Source: Acidobacteriota bacterium (lineage in GTDB: Bacteria > Acidobacteriota > Terriglobia > Bryobacterales > Bryobacteraceae). From it: a stretch of 64,000 nucleotides of DNA. Made by a program: the position numbers and the translations under genes. Positions 5,612-49,303 of this stretch are shown here, one piece after another. Where the stretch lies: contig JACTMJ010000002.1 in the NCBI GenBank assembly GCA_014584705.1, positions 74,914 through 138,913 of the forward strand, written 5' to 3'. Under the pieces are notes generated by a model, which did no database searches, had not been told where the DNA came from, and saw nothing but the letters and a program-made list of their open reading frames with translations. The number at the start of each line of letters is the position of its first letter. Positions within the stretch are counted from its first letter, which is position 1.

Positions 5612-6481
5612 CTATGCGGAACCAAGGCTGACGATTTCCTGGATGCGGACACCGTAATTGCCTTCGGTAACAACGACTTCGCCCCGACCGATGACACGAT
5701 CGTTGACGATGATCTCAACCGGGTCGTGGATACTGCGGTCCAGCTCCACAATCGAACCGGTGGACAATTTGAGCACATCCTGGAGCGCGACCTTTGCTTT
5801 GCCGAAGCTGATTCGGATGGGCAGTTCGAGATCCAACACGCGGCTGAGGTCGTCATCGCCCGTAGCGCCCGCAGTTCCCGAAGCGCGAGAGGCGCCTGAA
5901 GCGATGGGCGCCCGCACAGGGTTGTTCGGTGAAGCATCCGGTGCGGATTCGGACTTCGGACCGTCTTCTTCCTCTTGGGCGTGCCGTTCGAGGATCGACA
6001 GAAGGGATTCCGATACGCCGAAGCACAGAGGAGCAAGCGTTTGATCTTCGAACTGCAACTGGTAGCAAACCTCGAAGGCGGCGGGCGAATCGGCTCCGCA
6101 CACGACGGCTTCAAGGAGGGCGATATCGGCCGCCAGAGCACGGCCGAGAAACTGGGCCACCGCGGACAGCGCGCTTTGCAACACTTCCGTATAGCTGCCG
6201 GACACGTCTTCGTCCGTGAAATCATCGAGCCCCGCCGCGCTGAGGACGCGGGCGCCAATCGCCCTGCCGATAATCTCCGGGGCGGCTGTGTAGAGTTGCG
6301 AACCGGGCTGTGTATCCAGCGGATGCGCGCGCCATTCGCACTCAACGCCGGAAGGCGGAGGCGCTTCGGCCACTTCTACTTGCGCCCCGCAAAGCATTTC
6401 GAGCGATGCAGCCAGACGCGTGCGGAACTCGGCCGCGATCGCTTGAGGGGTCAAAGAACCGGTCGTGGATCGGGTTGTCAT
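5612..6481 (-). CDS. flagellar switch protein of the FliY/FliN family (divergent N-terminal 200 aa plus C-terminal SpoA domain)
   Basis: ATGA overlap with the fliA stop. The C-terminus (ISFGKAKVALQDVLKLSTGSIVELDRSIHDPVEIIVNDRVIGRGEVVVTEGNYGVRIQEIV) is a typical FliN/SpoA domain. I saw no canonical FliM N-terminal CheY-binding motif or CheC active-site motif. Confidence 0.7.
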   Translation of the reverse strand: MTTRSTTGSLTPQAIAAEFRTRLAASLEMLCGAQVEVAEAPPPSGVECEWRAHPLDTQPGSQLYTAAPEIIGRAIGARVLSAAGLDDFTDEDVSGSYTEVLQSALSAVAQFLGRALAADIALLEAVVCGADSPAAFEVCYQLQFEDQTLAPLCFGVSESLLSILERHAQEEEDGPKSESAPDASPNNPVRAPIASGASRASGTAGATGDDDLSRVLDLELPIRISFGKAKVALQDVLKLSTGSIVELDRSIHDPVEIIVNDRVIGRGEVVVTEGNYGVRIQEIVSLGSA

Positions 6482-7239
6482 AGGCCACGCTCCATGGGCC
6501 AGCTGCGCCGCATCGAGGTTCTGAGACGAAGGATCGCCTGGGTCTTCAATTGCGAGATCCTCGATTCGTGCAGGTGGACGATCCGGGCAATCTCACGCAG
6601 AGTGAGTTCTTCCTGAAAATAGAAATCCAGGATGGCGCTTTCGATCGGCGGCAATCGCCGGATGGCTTCCGCGAGCAGACGCTCAAGCTCGCGCCGCTCG
6701 TAGAGTTGATTGGGCAGTTCCGCGTCTTCGTCGGCGAGATAGGAGATCAGCTCGCGCCCATCTTCTTCGTTCGCCGCATATTCCAGACTCCCGAGCGTGA
6801 GGCCCTGGGTGTCGACGAGGTACTGATGATACACGTCCAGGGTTACTCCCATTTCCTCGGCGATCTGCTCGTCGTTGGGCGTCGCTTGCAATTCCTGTTC
6901 CACCCGGGCAATGGCGGATTCGATCTGTTTGGCGAGGCGGCGGCGCTGGCGAGGCGCCCAGTCGAGATCCCGCAGACTGTCGAGGATCGCGCCGCGGATC
7001 TTGTACTCGGCGTAGGTCTTGAGCTTGACATTGTGCGTGGGATCGAAACAGTCGATCGCGGAGATCAAGCCCAGAACTCCGGCCGATACCAGGTCGTCGA
7101 GGCTGATACTGTCGGGAAGGCGTTCGAAGATTTTGCGCGCGATCAGCCGCACCTGGGGCATATGCTCCAGGATGAGCGCTTCCCTGGTGACGCTTTCGCT
7201 TGGCGGGCTTGAATGGGGACGGGCGACAGCGGATCTCAC
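6478..7239 (-). CDS. fliA: RNA polymerase sigma-28 factor FliA
   Basis: AAGGAG followed by 7 nt then GTG at 7239; the longest ORF starts with TTG at 7257. Sigma-70 regions 2-4 are recognisable (KTYAEYKIRGAILD, LTLREIARIVHLHESRISQLKTQAILRLR). Sits in the flagellar operon. Confidence 0.93.
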   Translation of the reverse strand: MRSAVARPHSSPPSESVTREALILEHMPQVRLIARKIFERLPDSISLDDLVSAGVLGLISAIDCFDPTHNVKLKTYAEYKIRGAILDSLRDLDWAPRQRRRLAKQIESAIARVEQELQATPNDEQIAEEMGVTLDVYHQYLVDTQGLTLGSLEYAANEEDGRELISYLADEDAELPNQLYERRELERLLAEAIRRLPPIESAILDFYFQEELTLREIARIVHLHESRISQLKTQAILRLRTSMRRSWPMERGL

Positions 7240-7265
7240 GCGGCAACTCCTTGACAATTTCGAGA

Positions 7266-7329: not shown

Positions 7330-8934
7330 TCAGGCGGCGAAGTTCATGGCCAGCGCTTGTGCGGGCAGAATGCGCTCGCAGATTCGTTCGCGACTCGCCA
7401 GTTCCAGGTCGTCGGGAATCCGCTGCCCGGTGGCAAAGTACGCGAGCGGCTTCCGGCGCCGCCAGGATTCGCTCACCAACTGGCCGATGGAAGTGGTTTC
7501 GTCCAGCTTGGTGTAGACAAGGCTCTGATAGTCGAAAGCCTCGTAGAGATCCGCCAGGCGTTCGAAGTCGGCCGCCTTCATCGACGCCGGCGCCACCATG
7601 TGCGTGATCGTATGATCGAGACTGCGCAAAAACGAGGCCAGATCCTCCGCCGCATCAAAATCCCGCCACCCGAGCCCGGGCGTATCGACAAGAATGATCT
7701 CCTTCGAGGAGTACTCGCGGATCGCTTTCTCAAGAGCGGGCACGGTGGAGAGCGTGTCGAAGCCGACTCCGAGGACCGCCGCGTAGGCGCGGAGCTGTTC
7801 CGAAGCGCCCACCCGGAAGTTGTCCATGGAAATGATTTGCAGCGGGAAACGGCTGATCTCGCTGTAGCGCACCGCCAGTTTCACGAGCGTCGTGGTCTTG
7901 CCCGCGCCCGGAGGTCCCACCAGGGAAATGACAAGCGGGGTCGTGCGTTTGCGGCGCAACCCGGGTTCGGGCATCAGTTCGATGTGCGAAGCGATGGCAT
8001 CCTGGAGCGCGGAGACCAGATGAGCGGCCCCCTCACGCGCTTGCTGCTTCGGCGTCGCCGCGCTCCGTTTGCGCGAGGACCGGGCCGGCCGGTTGCGATC
8101 CGCGCCGTTCCCCCGCCCTCCCGTCTTCTGTTCCGCGACGCCGGAACCGAGCGTTCCGCTCATGGAGGAAAGGATGCGCTCGATCAGCTCCGGATGGAAA
8201 TCCTGTTCAAGCAGCAGATCGTATAGATAGCGCAGATCGTCGCTCGGGAGTTCCTGGCGGTAGTTGGCCGAGCTTACCCGGCGAACCGAGCCCGCCAGCT
8301 GCAGCATCTCTTTGCGAATCGAGAGCATTTGCTCGCGAAGTTTTTCGAACGATTCCATGGCGGAAGCGTCCTTTGCGGCTGCCGGAGGGATAGAGGCCGC
8401 GACGCACCCGTTTCCCATCGGTTGCACCTCGCCCGCTCCGGCGACGGAAGATTCCCGGCCCGCTTCTCCCGGGTTCTCCGCGGCGGGACGCCGCTGGTCC
8501 CCGAATGACGGCGGCGCACTTGTCACGTCATTCTCATCCGCCGCGAGAAAAGAATCTTCCAACCCCCGTGAAGAATGCGGAGCGTGCGGGACGCCTTCCG
8601 AAACGGAGTTCTCCTTCGCAGGGGAGCGCAGCTTGGAGGCCGCGCTCTCCTCGGGACGAGCTTCGGGATTCCGGTGTACCCGGCGCGCGAGATCGTATGG
8701 ATGAGCGGAGGCGGCTTCCGGCGGGCCGGCGGCGGCGGAATCTCGCGCCACGGCGGCTTCCCCTGCATTGGAAGAGTAGGCAAAACTCACGGCGAACTGG
8801 TCCGCTTGCCCTTTCTTCTGGTTCTCTATCCGCTTGGAGTTGAGCAGCATGGCATCGGCTCCAAGCTCGCGGCGGGCCTGTCGAATAGCATCCTGGACGC
8901 TCGCTGCATGAAAAGTTTTTGTGTTCATTCGCAT
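7330..8934 (-). CDS. flhF: flagellar biosynthesis GTPase FlhF (SRP-type), with long low-complexity insertions
   Basis: N-terminal B-domain TFHAASVQDAIRQARRELGADAMLL. G1 motif GPPGAGKTTT, G3 DTPG, G4 TKLD. Located between flhA and fliA. Confidence 0.9.
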   Translation of the reverse strand: MRMNTKTFHAASVQDAIRQARRELGADAMLLNSKRIENQKKGQADQFAVSFAYSSNAGEAAVARDSAAAGPPEAASAHPYDLARRVHRNPEARPEESAASKLRSPAKENSVSEGVPHAPHSSRGLEDSFLAADENDVTSAPPSFGDQRRPAAENPGEAGRESSVAGAGEVQPMGNGCVAASIPPAAAKDASAMESFEKLREQMLSIRKEMLQLAGSVRRVSSANYRQELPSDDLRYLYDLLLEQDFHPELIERILSSMSGTLGSGVAEQKTGGRGNGADRNRPARSSRKRSAATPKQQAREGAAHLVSALQDAIASHIELMPEPGLRRKRTTPLVISLVGPPGAGKTTTLVKLAVRYSEISRFPLQIISMDNFRVGASEQLRAYAAVLGVGFDTLSTVPALEKAIREYSSKEIILVDTPGLGWRDFDAAEDLASFLRSLDHTITHMVAPASMKAADFERLADLYEAFDYQSLVYTKLDETTSIGQLVSESWRRRKPLAYFATGQRIPDDLELASRERICERILPAQALAMNFAA

Positions 8935-17393: not shown

Positions 17394-20048
17394 TCAACTG
17401 TTCCCGCGCCCCGAGCCCCGAACCGCACCGCGGGCGTCGTCCCGAAACGCTTCGGCGCGCCCCGCGATCGCCCCGTCGAGGGTCCCGGCAAAGGACGAAG
17501 CACCCCCGCGCGGAGACAAGATCCGCGCGGAGAAGGCCCGCCGATTCTGTTCATCACCGCCCTGTTCCGGCGACCGGCCTCCCGCGAATCCTTCGCCGCC
17601 CGATTGCCCGGGCGACCCGCCTCCCTGCCGGTGGGAAGGAGCGTCGCGCCACTCGCCGTGATCCGTCGACCTCTGGCCGGAGCTTGGACTCCCGGCATCG
17701 AAGCCCGATCGCTCGAGCCGGTGGAGCAATGATGGAATCTCCGCGCGCATCTCGCGCACGAAGCGCTCCGATTGGGATTCGATGCGCACTTCAATATCGG
17801 CTCCCGCACTTCCGGCGGCCCGGTTGCCGCGCTGCAGGAAGCGGAGCCGGACATCCTCGCCTCCGCCCGCCCCCGGCAGATCCACGCGAAGCGACCGGGC
17901 CGCGGGAAGGTCCTTGCCGGCGGCGGGGCCGGGCTGCGGCGGCAACTCAGCCAGGAGCGCTTCGGCAACCTTCGGCAACGTGCCGCCGGACGGAGATTGG
18001 CCGGTAGCGGCGCCGGTTCGGATCGAGCCGTGGGCCGTGCCCCCCGCGCCCGGGTGCCCTGCGGAACCTGCATGGTTCGGGGACGCGGCCACGAGCGATG
18101 CCGGATGAAGCTCCGGATGGGCAGCCATCCCGGCCGCGCCCGCGCGGAAGGGCTTCCGCGGCCACGGCGAGGTTTCCCCGGAATCGCCGGGAGCGCTCTC
18201 TTCCGGGTGCGATGCGGCCGCGGTACCGGACGAAGCGGCGTCAGGAATCGTCATCCGCCTTGCGGCTCCCTGACCGAACCTCACCCCTCCGGCGGATCCG
18301 CTCCCGGACCCGAACCGGGGCGCGGCGAGTACGGCCGATCCCGGAATCGGAAAGTTCGTCTCCACCCCCGCTCGCGCCGGAAGCCGGACGTTGGCGTCGT
18401 TTTCCCCGGCGGCAGGCGAGGCCTCGGATAGAGGGGCCTGCCCGGTTTGTGCAAGGGTTTTCTGTTCAAGAGTGCGGGCGGCGTCCCGCGAGCCCGGAAC
18501 GGCGTGGGTTGCGATGGCTGCCCCCGGCGCCGCCGCGTCGTTAGATTCAGCGGGAATCCCCATGGCGAGCGGTCTTGCGGTGGGCGGGAAAGCGACGGAA
18601 TCGCCGGCCCGCGCGTTCGCCCACCGGGATCCCGCGAGAACCGCCGCTCCATCCGCCGCGTCGCGCATCGCGCCGTCCATCGCGCCGTCCATTGCGCCGT
18701 CCATTGCGCCGCCCATTGCGCCATCCATCGTGTCGCCCGCCGCGCCTCCGCCGCCGAGCCCCGCGTTTTCTCCAGCGGAGGCTACAATCCGGTCAACCGT
18801 AACGCGAATCGTCGGCGGTGCGGACGAGGTCCCGGAGCCAGAGCGGCCGAGATCCTCGGCGAATGCTCCGCGCCCGAAAGCCGCGGTGGCGACATCCGAG
18901 CCCGCCAGGACCGGTTCCGGAGAACCTCCCCGGCCTGCGCGTCCCGCGATACCCGGCGTCGCCTCCGTTCCAATCCGCGTCCACGGCCCGGGAGCGCCCG
19001 GTCCGGACGCGGAACTCAGGTGCGGATCCGCGGTTTGCGGATTCATGCCGCCCCGGGGGGGCGGAACTGCCTCGCCTAGCGCCGCGATGGCTTGGCCGGG
19101 AGAACCCGCGGCGGGAATCGAATGGCCGGCGACGGCCGCGGGCGCGCCCGTCGCCGCTGAATCTCTTACCGGCGCGCCGGAAGCGACCAGCGCATCGGAG
19201 TTCTCCTGGTCGCCGGGCTCCCAAGCCCGCGGGTTTTCTTCCGTTTCCTCCACGAAACCGCCGCCGCCAGCGAACCGGATTGGCCCCTCATCGGGGTTAC
19301 CCGCGGAAGTCGCACCTCCTTGGGTTGTGCGTTCTTGTGCCGGACGAGAGGCGTCCGCCGCAGCCGCGCGGGCATCGCGAGAGGCGTCGGATGCCGGTTG
19401 CGAATCTGAATTCCGGCGAGAGGCGTCCGCCATCTCCGCCCGGGCTGGCCACAATGCGGAACGGTGCGCCGGAGCACCCGATTCGAGGCGCGCCGGTGCA
19501 TTACCGCGAACCAGCGCGCGCGCGCCGACAGAGTTCGCTCGCGGACGCGAATCGGCTAAGCCCGTGCGCTGACGCTCGTTGGCTAAGCCCGTGCGCTGAC
19601 GCTCGTCGGCTAGGCCCGTGCGCTGACGCTCGTCGGCTAGGCCCGTGCGCGAACGCTCGTCGGCTAGGCCCGTGCGCGAACGCTCGTCGGCTAGGCCCGT
19701 GCGCGAACGCGCAACGCCCTCCATCCGGTTTCCCGCGTTTTGCCGCCGGTCCTCGTTCGCCTCACCCAATCTGGAGGACGGCTCGAACCGGGAGTGGCGC
19801 ACCGGATCCTCCGTTGTCTTCCCCGGCGGAGGCAAAGGCACCCGGTCCGCAAACTGCCGGGGTGTCGCGGCCGCTACATCGATGCGAGTCTCCATCCACA
19901 TCGCCAGATAGCCGCCAAACTCGGCGACACCGCGAGCCGATTCTTCCTCCCTGGGCGCTCGTCCGGCTTGCGCGGATGCGCTTGCACGGCTGGAGGATGA
20001 GAGCGAGGCCGCGGAATTCGCGGAGGACCGAATCGATGCAGGAGTCAC
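17394..20048 (-). CDS. fliK: FliK-like flagellar hook-length control protein (884 aa, Ala/Gly/Pro/Arg-rich, internal tandem repeats)
   Basis: GGGAG followed by 7 nt then GTG 20048. Sits directly upstream of flgD-flgE. The C-terminal region (LRVDLPGAGGGEDVRLRFLQRGN...IEVRIESQSERFVREMRAEIPSLLHRLERSGFDAG) resembles the FliK Flg_hook/T3S4 domain. The rest is low complexity. Confidence 0.7.
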   Translation of the reverse strand: MTPASIRSSANSAASLSSSSRASASAQAGRAPREEESARGVAEFGGYLAMWMETRIDVAAATPRQFADRVPLPPPGKTTEDPVRHSRFEPSSRLGEANEDRRQNAGNRMEGVARSRTGLADERSRTGLADERSRTGLADERQRTGLADERQRTGLANERQRTGLADSRPRANSVGARALVRGNAPARLESGAPAHRSALWPARAEMADASRRNSDSQPASDASRDARAAAADASRPAQERTTQGGATSAGNPDEGPIRFAGGGGFVEETEENPRAWEPGDQENSDALVASGAPVRDSAATGAPAAVAGHSIPAAGSPGQAIAALGEAVPPPRGGMNPQTADPHLSSASGPGAPGPWTRIGTEATPGIAGRAGRGGSPEPVLAGSDVATAAFGRGAFAEDLGRSGSGTSSAPPTIRVTVDRIVASAGENAGLGGGGAAGDTMDGAMGGAMDGAMDGAMDGAMRDAADGAAVLAGSRWANARAGDSVAFPPTARPLAMGIPAESNDAAAPGAAIATHAVPGSRDAARTLEQKTLAQTGQAPLSEASPAAGENDANVRLPARAGVETNFPIPGSAVLAAPRFGSGSGSAGGVRFGQGAARRMTIPDAASSGTAAASHPEESAPGDSGETSPWPRKPFRAGAAGMAAHPELHPASLVAASPNHAGSAGHPGAGGTAHGSIRTGAATGQSPSGGTLPKVAEALLAELPPQPGPAAGKDLPAARSLRVDLPGAGGGEDVRLRFLQRGNRAAGSAGADIEVRIESQSERFVREMRAEIPSLLHRLERSGFDAGSPSSGQRSTDHGEWRDAPSHRQGGGSPGQSGGEGFAGGRSPEQGGDEQNRRAFSARILSPRGGASSFAGTLDGAIAGRAEAFRDDARGAVRGSGRGNS
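18669..18728 (-). repeat. five tandem 12-nt coding repeats inside the fliK-like gene (GAMD tetrapeptide)
   Basis: [c/t]gcgcc[g/a][t/c]ccat repeated five times, encoding GAMGGAMDGAMDGAMDGAM. Confidence 0.9.
19554..19715 (-). repeat. six tandem 27-nt coding repeats inside the fliK-like gene (9-aa unit RTGLADER[S/Q])
   Basis: Units start at 19554, 19581, 19608, 19635, 19662 and 19689. Neighbouring units differ by 0-3 nt. Confidence 0.95.
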
Positions 20049-20263
20049 GCGGTGCTCCCTTGCAGTTTCGATACCATTCGCGCGGACACCCCGGATCCCG
20101 CACTTTCCCGCCGCAATCGCAGCCTTCCCGTGAAGAACAGCCGACCATTTTTCGTCACTGGCAAGGTTTCATCGCGCTCCCCCCTCTGCCTCTCCCCGGC
20201 CACGAGGGGACGGAAAGAGGCGCCAGACGGGCGCCGCGCGCTCCCCGGCCCGGCTTCGCCTGT

Positions 20264-20329
20264 ATTGGCCTCTCGCGTGCATTGCCTCTCGCGTGCATTG
20301 CCTCTCGCGTGCATTGACCTCTCGCGTAC
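20264..20329. repeat. four tandem 16/17-nt repeats in the divergent fliK / flgF control region
   Basis: attggcctctcgcgtgc / attgcctctcgcgtgc / attgcctctcgcgtgc / attgacctctcgcgtac. Confidence 0.95.
20265..20281 (+). promoter_or_regulatory. possible sigma-54 (-24/-12) promoter for the flgF arm
   Basis: TTGGCCTCTCGCGTGCA. The GG and GC dinucleotides have the spacing of TGGCACG-N4-TTGCW, about 76 nt before the flgF start. It forms the first unit of a 4x tandem repeat. Several consensus mismatches. Confidence 0.3.
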
Positions 20330-20356
20330 AAGAGGACCATCGACGGAGGACGCCCC

Positions 20357-21106
20357 TTGGATCCCATCACTTCCCTGCTAGCCGGAGGAATGACTTCCCG
20401 GCTCGATTCTCTCGATCTGCTCGCCAACAACATCGCGAACGCTTCCTCGGCGGGGTACAAGGCGGACCGGGAACGCTTCAGCGCGTTTCTCTCCGCGGAC
20501 CTGGCGGAGGCGCTGGCCACGGGCGAGACGAGGAAGGCGAGCGAGATCCCGATGGTGGAGGACCGCTTTACCGAGTTTCGGCAGGGAACGTTCCTCGAAA
20601 CGGGCGTCGCCACCGATGTGGCGCTCGACGGAGAGGGATTCTTCTCTGTAGAAACTCCCCGCGGCGTCCGATATACGCGTGCGGGCCGGTTTCATCTCGA
20701 GCGCGACGGCGAATTGCGAACGCGCGAGGGATACCGTGTGCGCGTGAAGCAGACGCAGAACCCGAAGCGGCTGGCGGCGGACCCCGCGCAGCCCATCCGC
20801 ATAACGCCGCGGGGAGAAATTTTTCAGGGAGAGAACCGGCTCGGCGTGATGGACCGGGTGGGTTTCGGGCGACCCGATCTGCTCCGCAAGGAAGAGGCGG
20901 TTTATTTCCGGGCGGTGGAGGGGATGACGGAGCTGGCACGGGAGACGCCGGTGGTGAGCGGAAGCCTCGAGGCCTCGAATGTCGATGCCGCGGCGGGATC
21001 GTTCCGGCTGGTGGAAACCACGCGCCAGTTCGGCATGCTCAACCGTGCCTTCACGCTGCACGACGGTTTGCAGCGCGGTTTGATCGAACGGGTAGCCAAG
21101 TGGTAA
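20357..21106 (+). CDS. flgF: flagellar basal-body rod protein FlgF
   Basis: GGAGGA followed by 6 nt then TTG 20357. N-terminus LDLLANNIANASSAGYK. 249 aa, immediately upstream of flgG. Confidence 0.88.
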   Translation: MDPITSLLAGGMTSRLDSLDLLANNIANASSAGYKADRERFSAFLSADLAEALATGETRKASEIPMVEDRFTEFRQGTFLETGVATDVALDGEGFFSVETPRGVRYTRAGRFHLERDGELRTREGYRVRVKQTQNPKRLAADPAQPIRITPRGEIFQGENRLGVMDRVGFGRPDLLRKEEAVYFRAVEGMTELARETPVVSGSLEASNVDAAAGSFRLVETTRQFGMLNRAFTLHDGLQRGLIERVAKW

Positions 21107-21137
21107 GGGTTCCCGAGACTCGAAAGGAAATGCACAG

Positions 21138-21929
21138 ATGATCCGAGCTCTTTATAGCGCCGCCAGCGGCATGAGCGCGCAACAGACGAACGTCGACAAT
21201 ATCTCTCACAATCTTGCCAACGCGAACACGGTAGGGTTCAAGATGCGCCGGGCGCAGTTCCAGGACCTGCTCTATCAGAACGTGATTCAGCCGGGCTCGA
21301 GCGCCAACGCGCAGGCGTTCGTGCCAACGGGGTTGCAGATCGGCCTCGGAACGCGCGCCATCTCGAACGAGATCATCTTTACACAGGGCAATTTCACGCT
21401 CACCAACAACCCCTATGATCTGGTGATCGAGGGCAATGGTTTCTTCGCCGTCCGGCAGCAGAACGGGGAATTGGCCTACACGCGGGCCGGTGCGTTCCAT
21501 CTCGATCAGGATGGGCGCATGGTGACCGCCGACGGCAATCAACTGGACCCACCAATCACGCTTCCCCCGGAGGCTCTGAATGTCCGGATCGCGCCGGACG
21601 GTACCGTCACCTATTCGATCCCCGGCCAGAGCGGCAGCCAGCGCGCCGGGCAGTTTCTTCTGGCGAACTTCCAGAATCCGGCGGGCTTGAGCAGTCTGGG
21701 GAAGAATCTTCTGCTGCCGACAGATGCGAGCGGACAGCCGACGCTCTCGATCCCCGGAGGTCCGGAGGGGGCGGGCACACTGCTGCAGGGTTATGTGGAG
21801 CAATCCAACGTGAGCCTGGTGGAGGAGTTCATCAGCTTGATCACCAGCCAGCGCGCCTACGAGGCGAACGCCAAGGTGGTGAAGGCGGCCGATGAAATGT
21901 ATCAGCAACTGAACAATCTGGCACGGTAA
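21138..21929 (+). CDS. flgG: flagellar distal rod protein FlgG
   Basis: MIRALYSAASGMSAQQTNVDNISHNLANANTVGFK ... ITSQRAYEANAKVVKAADEMYQQLNNL. 263 aa. Confidence 0.95.
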   Translation: MIRALYSAASGMSAQQTNVDNISHNLANANTVGFKMRRAQFQDLLYQNVIQPGSSANAQAFVPTGLQIGLGTRAISNEIIFTQGNFTLTNNPYDLVIEGNGFFAVRQQNGELAYTRAGAFHLDQDGRMVTADGNQLDPPITLPPEALNVRIAPDGTVTYSIPGQSGSQRAGQFLLANFQNPAGLSSLGKNLLLPTDASGQPTLSIPGGPEGAGTLLQGYVEQSNVSLVEEFISLITSQRAYEANAKVVKAADEMYQQLNNLAR

Positions 21930-21933
21930 TCGA

Positions 21934-22935
21934 ATGGCAACGAAAGGCAATAGGGATGGACGAATGTGGCGCAAGGCTCGGCGCGCATGGGCGCACGGGC
22001 TAGCGGCTCTCATGGCCGGCCTGCTGGCATTGGCCGCGCCCGCGCGATCGGGCGTGGCGGAAGCGGGTTGCCTTGCGGTGAGCGGGTCGCGATTGACGGC
22101 GGCTGCCTTGGCGCGAGAGGACCCGCGCTTTCTGGCGATACCCGCCGGCACGGATTTTGGATATCTCCCGGAACCCGGCGAACGGCGTACGCTCGCCCTG
22201 CCCACGGGGGAATTGGTCTGTCTGGAACGAGCCTCGCGGCCGCTTGCGGAAAGCGAGATCGCTCTGGCGCTGGAACTGCCCGGCACGGCAATCACGGCCG
22301 CGATTCTCGATTTTCCGAGGACGGCCTTTCCGCCGGGGAAGCTGCGCTTTCCCGCCAGCGGCGTTTCTCCGCCGGCGCGCGGATCCGATTCCGTCTTGTG
22401 GCGAGGCTCCATCGAATATGAGCCTGGGCGAACGATCGCGCTATGGGCACGCGTGCGCCTCGCGCGGGAGACAAAGTGTCTGCGCGCCGCGGCCGATATT
22501 CCGAAGGGTGGAGCGCTGTTCCCATCGGGAATTGAAGCAACAACCTGCGACGCCGCGGCGATTCTCGCCGGAGCGCTGGAGCCGGAGTCCCGGGAAAGCG
22601 TCTCCGCGTCTCATGGACGTTTCGCGGCCCGTCCGATCCGCAAGGGCGAGTGGCTGACGGCGGGATTATTGATCGACGCGGCCATGGTCGTCGCCCGCCG
22701 GGAGGCGATGCTTGAATTGCGTTCGGGTGGGGTACGCCTTGTGCTACCCGTGATGCCGGAAGAGAACGGGCGGGCAGGGGATGCCGTCTGGGTTCGCAGC
22801 ATGGCGACCAGAGAACGGCTCCAAGCCCGGGTCTCCGGACCCGATACGCTCACACTGACTTTGCCGGGTCGGGAACCTCGAACCAGGGCGGCGGCGCTCT
22901 CCTCGGCGGCGCGCCCGGATTGGAGAACTCCATGA
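21934..22935 (+). CDS. flgA: flagellar P-ring assembly chaperone FlgA
   Basis: Located between flgG and flgH. C-terminal SAF/ChapFlgA-like region (GEWLTAGLLIDAAMVVARREAMLELRSGGVRLVLPVMPEENGRAGDAVWVRS). Start ambiguous: ATG 21934 or ATG 21964. Confidence 0.8.
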   Translation: MATKGNRDGRMWRKARRAWAHGLAALMAGLLALAAPARSGVAEAGCLAVSGSRLTAAALAREDPRFLAIPAGTDFGYLPEPGERRTLALPTGELVCLERASRPLAESEIALALELPGTAITAAILDFPRTAFPPGKLRFPASGVSPPARGSDSVLWRGSIEYEPGRTIALWARVRLARETKCLRAAADIPKGGALFPSGIEATTCDAAAILAGALEPESRESVSASHGRFAARPIRKGEWLTAGLLIDAAMVVARREAMLELRSGGVRLVLPVMPEENGRAGDAVWVRSMATRERLQARVSGPDTLTLTLPGREPRTRAAALSSAARPDWRTP

Positions 22936-47776: not shown

Positions 47777-49303
47777 ATGAAGATTCAGATAAAGCGCTAC
47801 ATGCCGGGAGTTCTCCTTTGCGCAGCGCTGGCAGTTGGTTCCTCGCTCATTATTCATGCCATTGCCACACCCGAAGCGGGAGCGAATCGAGTGGATAGCG
47901 CCGTTCAGGCGAGCGGCCAGAACTCGGCTCCACCCAGTTTCACCTTTGCGCCGATGCTAAAGCAGGCACGCAAATCCGTGGTGAACGTGCTGGTGGAGAA
48001 AGTGGACCGCGTGCCCACCCGCAGTATGGAGCGTTTCCCGTTTCCCTTCTTCGACCCCTTTGGCCAGGGGGAAGGCCGGCAGCAGGATCCGAATGACGAC
48101 GGAACCCGCCGCAGCCGGGGCGCCGGTTCCGGAGTGGTGGTGAGCGCGGACGGCTACATCCTCACGAACAATCACGTGGTGGAAGATTCCGACGAAGTGA
48201 CGGTCACCTTTTCCAACGGCCGCACCGAAAAGGCGAAAGTCGTCGGTACGGACCCGCCCACCGACCTTGCCGTGCTGAAGGTGGAACCCAAGGGACTCGA
48301 TCTGGAACCCATCCAGTTCGCCAACTCGGATTCCGTCGAGGTGGGAGACCTGGCTTTCGCCATCGGGAATCCCCTCGGCATCGGCCAGACGGTGACCATG
48401 GGGATCGTGAGCGCGACGGGGCGCACCATGGGAATCATCCGTACCGGTGAGAACAGCGGCACTCCCCAGGCTGGGTATGAGGATTTCATTCAGACGGACG
48501 CCGCGATCAACCGGGGCAATTCCGGAGGCGCTCTGATCACCGTGGACGGGCGCTTGATGGGCATCAATTCCGCGATCATTTCGCAGAGCGGCGGCAACGA
48601 GGGGATCGGCTTTGCAATCCCGATGAATATCGCCCGCTTCGTGATGGACCAGTTGATTTCGAACGGCAAGGTGCAGCGAGCGATGATCGGCGCGCTGCTA
48701 ACCGAAGTGGATTCCACGATGGCCAAGGCGCTCGGAATGGACCGGCCTTACGGAGCCATGGTCAATGAGGTGGTGCAAGGAAAGCCCGCGGCGGCCGCCG
48801 GGATGAAAGCGGGAGACGTTATCACGAAGATCAACGGGACGGAGATGCGCGACAGCATGCAGACCCGGAACATGATCTCCATGATGAAGCCCGGCACGAA
48901 AGTGGACATCACCGTGAATCGCAACGGGAAAGCGGTAACGCTACCGGTGACGCTCACGGGACTCGATCAGCAGTTCTCCTCGGAGTCCGTCGAGAGCTCG
49001 TCCCAAAGCGGTCTTGACGGGGTGAGTGTGTCCGAGATCCCCGAAGACATGCGCTCTCAGTTGAGGTTGGATGCCGACGTCAAAGGCGTGGTGGTCACCC
49101 GCGTATCGCCTTCGAGCAAGGCAGCCGCGGGAGGTATTCGCCCGCGCGACGTGATTGTCGCCATTGACCGGCAACCCGTGACGAGCGTCGGCGATTTCGA
49201 GCGGCTTATGAAGGGTGCACAGAAGGATGCTATCTTCGTGCAGGTAAAGCGCTACGTGCAAGGACGAGGCTGGAGCAATTTCTTCTTCGGTGTCGAACGG
49301 TAA
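47777..49303 (+). CDS. periplasmic serine endoprotease, HtrA/DegP/DegQ family (two PDZ domains)
   Basis: GGAGGAG RBS and a signal peptide. Catalytic motifs TNNHVV, DLAVLKV and GNSGGAL. Two PDZ-like segments. Confidence 0.95.
   Translation: MKIQIKRYMPGVLLCAALAVGSSLIIHAIATPEAGANRVDSAVQASGQNSAPPSFTFAPMLKQARKSVVNVLVEKVDRVPTRSMERFPFPFFDPFGQGEGRQQDPNDDGTRRSRGAGSGVVVSADGYILTNNHVVEDSDEVTVTFSNGRTEKAKVVGTDPPTDLAVLKVEPKGLDLEPIQFANSDSVEVGDLAFAIGNPLGIGQTVTMGIVSATGRTMGIIRTGENSGTPQAGYEDFIQTDAAINRGNSGGALITVDGRLMGINSAIISQSGGNEGIGFAIPMNIARFVMDQLISNGKVQRAMIGALLTEVDSTMAKALGMDRPYGAMVNEVVQGKPAAAAGMKAGDVITKINGTEMRDSMQTRNMISMMKPGTKVDITVNRNGKAVTLPVTLTGLDQQFSSESVESSSQSGLDGVSVSEIPEDMRSQLRLDADVKGVVVTRVSPSSKAAAGGIRPRDVIVAIDRQPVTSVGDFERLMKGAQKDAIFVQVKRYVQGRGWSNFFFGVER

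Follow-up and report, generated by a model that had tools for sequence, protein, structure and literature searches.

Probable recent amplification of a predicted sigma-54 promoter core upstream of the flgF operon in an uncultured species of Bryobacterales

Divergent flagellar operons and the four-unit array between them

The window, by which we mean the whole stretch of DNA that was analysed (64,000 nucleotides), belongs to a MAG of an uncultured member of the Bryobacterales (Acidobacteriota) and carries two flagellar gene arms that diverge from one control region (Table 1). On the plus strand, flgF starts with a TTG at 20357, which is preceded by GGAGG at 20345-20349, and the genes 3′ of it encode FlgG, FlgA, FlgH and FlgI. 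On the minus strand, a low-complexity FliK-like open reading frame of 884 aa begins with a GTG at 20048 and is followed by flgD, flgE, fliN, fliP, fliR, flhB, flhA, flhF and fliA. A preliminary description of this DNA had given these two starts (20048 on the minus strand and 20357) as the flanks of the region and had placed four tandem repeats of 16/17 nt between them, and both statements agreed with the sequence exactly. The four units were arranged head to tail at 20264-20329 with lengths of 17, 16, 16 and 17 nt, and they read ATTGGCCTCTCGCGTGC / ATTGCCTCTCGCGTGC / ATTGCCTCTCGCGTGC / ATTGACCTCTCGCGTAC. Tandem Repeats Finder reported the array with a period of 16, 4.4 copies, 92% matches and a score of 112 over the span 20256-20327, and it also offered an alternative reading with a period of 33. 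The exact 16-mer was present at a single locus in the whole 4.88-Mb genome (61.4% GC). The preliminary description had proposed looking for it at other flagellar loci of the genome, and the genome-wide exact search found it at none of them. A scan of the control region against Rfam gave matches at chance level only.

The array is genuine DNA and not an assembly artefact. An identical array was obtained in Logan contigs from five independent studies, P1-P5 (runs X1, X3, X4, X5 and X7), where the de Bruijn graph split it into unitigs of 43 nt and 33 nt alongside a left contig that ends at 20297. Four of the five runs showed a depth close to that of the flank for the 43-nt unitig and about double that depth for the 33-nt one, which corresponds to an array of four units. 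In X5, a run of low depth, the 43-nt unitig had about half of the flank depth, and this misfit was read as noise. Altogether the four-unit array was found in metagenomes of more than 10 independent studies, and the array sequence came from metagenomic runs on bioreactors, sludge and biofilms. JGI metagenome contigs were scanned twice, once for the unit junction and once for the enhancer block, with no match in either case.

Table 1. Features of the control region, in coordinates of the window
Feature	Coordinates	Strand	Basis or remark
Unit 1, predicted sigma-54 promoter core of the flgF operon, intact	20264..20280	+	Matrix score, conservation
Units 2 and 3, 16 nt each, identical in the window	20281..20312	+	One G of the -24 GG lost
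Unit 4, 17 nt, promoter copy	20313..20329	+	GG>GA; -12 GC>AC
Partial unit 5′ of the array	20256..20263	+	TCGCCTGT; array start in Tandem Repeats Finder is 20256
Predicted 5′ leader, ~65 nt	20292..20356	+	From a start ~12 nt past the -12 C (20280) of unit 1
flgF, first gene of the flgF-flgG-flgA-flgH-flgI operon	20357..21106	+	Pfam LlgE_F_G_D1, Flg_bb_rod
Predicted divergent sigma-54 promoter of the fliK-flgD-flgE...flhA-flhF-fliA arm	20061..20076	-	TGGTATCGAAACTGCA; -12 C at 20062
GTG start codon of the FliK-like open reading frame	20046..20048	-	Nominal +3 of the minus-strand promoter
Putative composite enhancer (UAS) between the divergent promoters	20142..20175	.	CGACCATTTTTCGTCAC-TGGCAAGGTTTCATCGC

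The flgF promoter element in related genomes

Sigma-54 promoters follow the consensus TGGCAC-N5-TTGCW, in which GG and GC are exactly 10 nt apart and serve as near-invariant contact nucleotides. In the window this GG-N10-GC feature was found in unit 1 and in none of units 2-4. Unit 1, TGGCCTCTCGCGTGCA, carries TGG at 20266-20268 (GG at 20267-20268) and the -12 GC at 20279-20280. Units 2 and 3 are one G short, as had been noted in the preliminary description, and this loss leaves them without GG and with a shortened spacing, so that the GG-N10-GC geometry is gone. A scoring matrix was built from 54 Bryobacterales sites with the window's genome left out; its GG was near-invariant, its T at -14 and its GC at -13/-12 were invariant, and the consensus TGGC...TGCA was strong. 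On this clade matrix unit 1 scored 19.4 bits and ranked fourth in the genome, while units 2 and 3 scored 9.6 bits each and unit 4 scored 6.5 bits.

The comparison with relatives was based on a FlgF search of 40 genomes, 29 of which were positive, giving 30 genomes from 21 genera when the window's own is included; the closest public records were MAGs labelled Bryobacterales, Bryobacteraceae or Solibacteraceae. On the coding strand, all 30 Bryobacterales genomes had a GG-N10-GC element before flgF; its position was -91 in the window's genome alone, whereas the 29 others had it 28-52 nt from the flgF start. The background of GG-N10-GC matches with a decent score at these loci was 0.36% per position, or 0.086 per 25-nt window. 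Outside the genus the upstream DNA could not be aligned, and the conservation of position is thus meaningful, though the genomes are related. The identification of unit 1 as a -24/-12 promoter of the sigma-54 type in the preliminary description is thereby upheld, since position, spacing and the GG and GC were kept in 30/30 genomes, and we infer from these sequence features that the flgF promoter depends on sigma-54.

In a MAFFT alignment of the intergenic region of the window with five same-genus genomes, each of the five relatives had a single copy of the element ~42-45 nt before the flgF start (TGGCCCCCCGCGTGCA in G003, TGGCAATCTGCGTGCA in G007 and G008, TGGCCCTTGGCTTGCA in G009 and TGGTCACGTTCGTGCA in G002), and the window differed from them by an insertion of 49 nt. 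The single promoter of the relatives was paired with unit 4 in this alignment. Measured from the T of one TGG to the T of the other, the minus-strand promoter and unit 1 are 189 nt apart; the corresponding range in the five nearest relatives was 186-190 nt. This agreement indicates that unit 1 keeps the ancestral geometry and that the additional 49 nt lie downstream of it. From the single aligned copy of the relatives, the conservation of position and the matrix scores, the units are, by sequence comparison, tandem copies of the predicted flgF sigma-54 promoter core. The multi-unit array was missing from every other species genome examined; conservation of the repeat number, which the preliminary description had raised as a point in question, was found within the species, with four units in every resolvable run, and not beyond it.

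The minus-strand promoter, the putative enhancer and candidate activators

A second predicted sigma-54 promoter, reading from 20076 to 20061 on the minus strand, scored 14.2 bits on the clade matrix. Its TGG and CTGCAA were invariant in the six-genome alignment, and it was found in most of the 30 genomes. The preliminary description had drawn attention to a weaker minus-strand element, TGGCCGGGGAGAGGCA, at 20202>20187; this sequence does exist, but it scored below 12 bits and lies in a variable stretch, and the conserved promoter is the one at 20076>20061. The sequence GCGTGA at the start of the FliK-like frame was invariant across the six genomes, and a long open reading frame, mostly with a GTG start, was located at +2 to +6 of the promoter in ~24 of the 30 Bryobacterales genomes. 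This pattern suggests a conserved leaderless mRNA transcribed from the minus-strand sigma-54 promoter.

Two further observations were made along this arm. In its distal part, flhF (7330-8934) and the following fliA (6478-7257) are separated by 73 nt and not by an flhG (MinD-like) gene; with fliA at the end of a long sigma-54-driven arm, sigma-28 would come under sigma-54 control. The FliK-like gene itself contains a 27-nt tandem repeat at 19540-19710 of the window (6.3 copies, 93% matches), which is translated into successive copies of a nine-residue, RTGLADERS-type peptide.

Between the two promoters, the putative composite enhancer is made up of two degenerate dyads of the GGCAA-N4-TTGCC type, and the stretch 20142-20175 was invariant in the six same-genus genomes. 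Across the 30 genomes, 25 GGCAA-N4-TTGCC dyads were counted between the promoters, compared with 3.7+/-1.9 in shuffled sequences (shuffle maximum 10). The enhancer core CTTGCCA-NN-GACGAAA had exactly two sites in the genome, one at 20142-20175 and the other near flgB; since the pattern was derived from those two sites, this count is descriptive and is no test. The second site was positioned 69 nt upstream of the -24 of the predicted sigma-54 promoter of flgB, TGGCAAGGGAACTGCA, whose operon on contig C8 also carries fliF, fliG and fliI. In this flgB region (L042 9820-9935; G000 C8, about 77820-77935, minus strand) the ATG of flgB is at ~+4, and a perfect GGCAAGTTCTTGCC dyad together with GACGAAA was seen upstream of the promoter.

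The genome was also inspected for rpoN and for enhancer-binding proteins, as the preliminary description had advised, and both were found. A Sigma54_DBD domain (PF04552, 199 bits) was detected in a 559-aa open frame at C12:45617-46090, and 15 full Sigma54_activat enhancer-binding proteins are encoded. Synteny and phyletic pattern singled out two candidates for the activator of the region. The first is a protein of 336 aa that consists of AAA+ and HTH_8 only, with no receiver, sensor or N-terminal regulatory domain; its gene (L041 7453-8463; G000 C28:50452-51462, minus strand) adjoins fliC, fliD, a glycosyltransferase gene and a methyltransferase gene. Orthologues of this candidate were present in 29 of the 30 flagellated genomes, and seven non-flagellate genomes of one genus gave paralogue-level matches only. 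NCBIfam assigned no specific family to the 336-aa protein. The second candidate is a kinase/response-regulator pair on C24, with the candidate activator at 64557-65930; in four other genera its orthologues are 17-21 kb away from flgF.

The overall arrangement is reminiscent of the Caulobacter crescentus flaN/flbG region, which reportedly has divergent sigma-54 promoters, ftr enhancers and the regulator FlbD. Caulobacter ftr elements are bound by an activator of the NtrC family, and the GGCAA-N4-TTGCC-type motif presumably resembles ftr. In both systems divergent flagellar hook/rod operons have a -24/-12 promoter each and common enhancer elements between them or nearby. The present region differs in that it belongs to the Acidobacteriota, that its enhancer motif was derived de novo and that the mRNA of its minus arm is apparently leaderless; moreover, we know of no description of a tandem amplification of a promoter core in Caulobacter. 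Studies of Caulobacter flaN/flbG, ftr and FlbD appear by title in the reference list of PMC3096577.

Sigma-54-dependent rod/hook classes are described for polar flagellates, with FlgSR in Campylobacter/Helicobacter, FlrBC in Vibrio and FleSR in Pseudomonas (PMC7064773). As in those bacteria, predicted sigma-54 promoters precede rod, ring and hook genes here (flgB, flgF-I, flgD/E, fliK), FlhF is present, and fliA (sigma-28) is downstream in the cascade. In contrast to them, the best-linked candidate activator is the 336-aa protein without a receiver rather than a two-component response regulator, and fliA stands at the end of a sigma-54-driven arm. Sigma-54 flagellar control in Acidobacteria was not described in the literature searched; the present data provide comparative evidence for predicted sigma-54 rod, ring, hook and export genes with a common enhancer in the Bryobacterales, and the enhancer motif and the corrected minus-strand promoter can be used for regulon annotation.

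It could be argued that no sigma-54 promoter exists here at all, that GG-N10-GC arose by chance in GC-rich DNA, that sigma-70 or sigma-28 drives flgF and that the repeat is neutral slippage junk. The frequency of decent matches, ~0.36% of positions, leaves some room for a chance hit, but the element kept its position in 30/30 genomes of 21 genera, with the invariant T at -14 and GC at -13/-12 and the strong TGGC and TGCA consensus described above, and a divergent promoter pair with a common enhancer fits a sigma-54 architecture. A scan of the region for sigma-70 promoters and terminators found neither, and FliA-type promoters are expected for late genes, which counts against sigma-28 at flgF. 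We therefore consider this explanation to have hardly any probability. The TTGACC created in unit 4 by the G>A change was also considered as a sigma-70 -35 element, and it was dropped for want of an acceptable -10 at 16-18 nt.

Another reading, put forward in part in the preliminary description, takes the units as iterated regulator-binding sites, or as decoys or roadblocks that hold non-productive sigma-54 holoenzyme past the start site. It can appeal to the -12 region (GTGCA), contacted by sigma-54, which units 2 and 3 retain, and to the location of units between the predicted start and the gene. However, the 16-mer occurs nowhere else, flagellar loci included, a single copy suffices in all 29 other species, a separate conserved enhancer is available at 20142-20175, the units have no dyad symmetry, and the changes in the copies destroy the sigma-54 contacts instead of preserving them. 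The holoenzyme-decoy and binding-site readings taken together were accordingly judged very unlikely; iterated binding sites in particular were rejected because the motif is limited to one locus, is single-copy in the relatives and is a duplicate of the promoter.

The predicted leader, the alleles and the origin of the array

With amplification of the promoter core as the preferred reading, units 2-4 would be expected to be inactive in the window, judging from the near-invariance of the GG and GC dinucleotides. The likely effect of the array would then be a single active promoter together with a longer leader, of ~65 nt, compared with ~16 nt for the equivalent leader in the relatives. The predicted leader contains units 3-4 and the Shine-Dalgarno sequence GGAGG. 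Its computed fold was not more stable than those of shuffled sequences (z = +1.2), and the idea that CCUCUC motifs form an anti-Shine-Dalgarno structure was abandoned for this reason.

Public metatranscriptomes were searched for the start site. In the RNA-labelled wastewater run X33, one contig with a depth of 2.1 begins at 20304 and extends into flgF; this contig end lies 12 nt past the start predicted for unit 1 and upstream of those that units 3 or 4 would give, and, as a single contig, it is weakly compatible with initiation from unit 1. The 'metatranscriptomic' runs X25-X32 had contigs that cross the intergenic region and looked like DNA, and X37, X38, X40 and X43 were without sequence at the locus. 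On window positions 19500-22000, runs X25-X32 and X34, which carry the metatranscriptomic label, showed contigs of up to 195 kb and even depth over the intergenic DNA, and the X34 contig was confined to 20107-20297, from the enhancer to unit 2.

Three alleles of the array were distinguished in the public runs. In allele A, that of the window, unit 1 alone keeps GG-N10-GC. Allele B (runs X10, X14, X15 and X18, the region being spanned by one contig per run) differs from the window by G>A at 20293, an additional G after 20299 and A>G at 20317, and allele C (runs X25-X30) is like B except that it has no change at 20317. Unit 1 was the same in all three. In alleles B and C unit 3 has regained its G, so that units 1 and 3 are both intact (unit 3 scored 20.6 bits), and unit 2 bears an additional G>A. 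Because unit 3 is intact in these two alleles, a description of the array as one promoter plus junk fails species-wide. Unit 4 has GC>AC at its -12 in every allele and is polymorphic for GA/GG. Variation in copy number was detected in no resolvable run of the more than 10 studies, and the array always had four units.

The differences among the alleles fall on the GG and -12 positions, unit 3 having G- or GG and unit 4 having GA or GG. Four of the five changes inferred in the copies hit the 4 critical nucleotides of 17 (binomial p ~0.01, rising to ~0.04 if conversion from unit 2 gave rise to unit 3 of allele A). Furthermore, the two units that are intact in alleles B and C are 33 bp apart, which is ~3.1 helical turns, whereas units 2 and 4, defective in every allele, are ~1.5 and ~4.7 turns from unit 1, out of phase with it. 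With three alleles only, the pattern of changes and the phasing give hints that selection may act against misplaced promoter copies.

These same observations are what speaks for a functional multi-promoter module, in which slippage or gene conversion would switch the number of intact cores between one and two and so set the expression of the rod operon, and in which selective silencing would affect those copies whose helical face is wrong with respect to the enhancer. Against such a module it must be said that just three alleles and five events are involved, that the copy number was constant in every run, that the coincidence in phasing has a 1-in-3 chance and that biased mutation at G-rich sites could give the same appearance as selection. 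We regard a tuning role of this kind, the silencing of wrong-face copies included, as unlikely. Only little credence was likewise given to a promoter cassette of interconverting copies with one (as in the window) or two active starts, whose wrong-face copies would be silenced at GG/GC. If it were true, the cassette would supply evidence from nature of face-of-helix constraints and of promoter interference at sigma-54 promoters.

The explanation that we consider probable is a recent, species-specific tandem amplification, from one to four copies (+49 nt), of the promoter core that serves the flgF-flgG-flgA-flgH-flgI operon, in an otherwise ordinary sigma-54 control region. In the relatives an imperfect direct repeat, GTGxGCA ... 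GCGTGCA, with its halves 16-17 nt apart, surrounds the promoter, and the sequences of this microhomology are CGTGAGCATTGGCCCCCCGCGTGCA and GTGCGCAATGGCAATCTGCGTGCA. Replication slippage between the 8-nt microhomology flanking the ancestral promoter probably produced the duplication, and the partial unit TCGCCTGT is a remnant of the microhomology that could have seeded it. Under the proposed scheme the enhancer at 20142-20175 would serve both the minus-strand promoter of the fliK...fliA arm and the flgF promoter, and an enhancer-binding ATPase would activate RNA polymerase-sigma-54, with transcription of flgF most likely starting at ~20292 from unit 1. Units 2-4 would be decayed promoter copies that are transcribed within the lengthened leader, and the array is best regarded as a promoter duplication of recent origin, in which decay is leaving a single active copy and a longer leader.

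In its form the array resembles contingency-type promoter repeats, which also are short head-to-tail repeats in a promoter region that probably arise from slippage. It differs from them in that each unit of 16-17 nt is a whole promoter core and not a spacer tract, and in that four copies were present in every population sampled, with variation restricted to point changes in the units. A phase-variable (contingency) locus was thus rejected, as the copy number is fixed at four in all resolvable runs. The literature searched held no description of a tandemly duplicated or amplified sigma-54 promoter core. In the array, naturally occurring promoter copies differ from one another at hardly any nucleotides besides the sigma-54 contacts, and the alleles A, B and C form a small test set suited to questions of promoter duplication, interference and enhancer phasing.

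Intergenic tandem arrays with a period of at least 9 and at least 3 copies numbered only ~12 in the whole genome, so that repeat-proneness is not pervasive in it. Three of the ~12 are near flagellar genes, and on C28 two intergenic arrays, at 48281-48348 (15 nt x4.7) and 49157-49218 (21 nt x3), were observed in the interval that separates the fliD region from the orphan activator gene.
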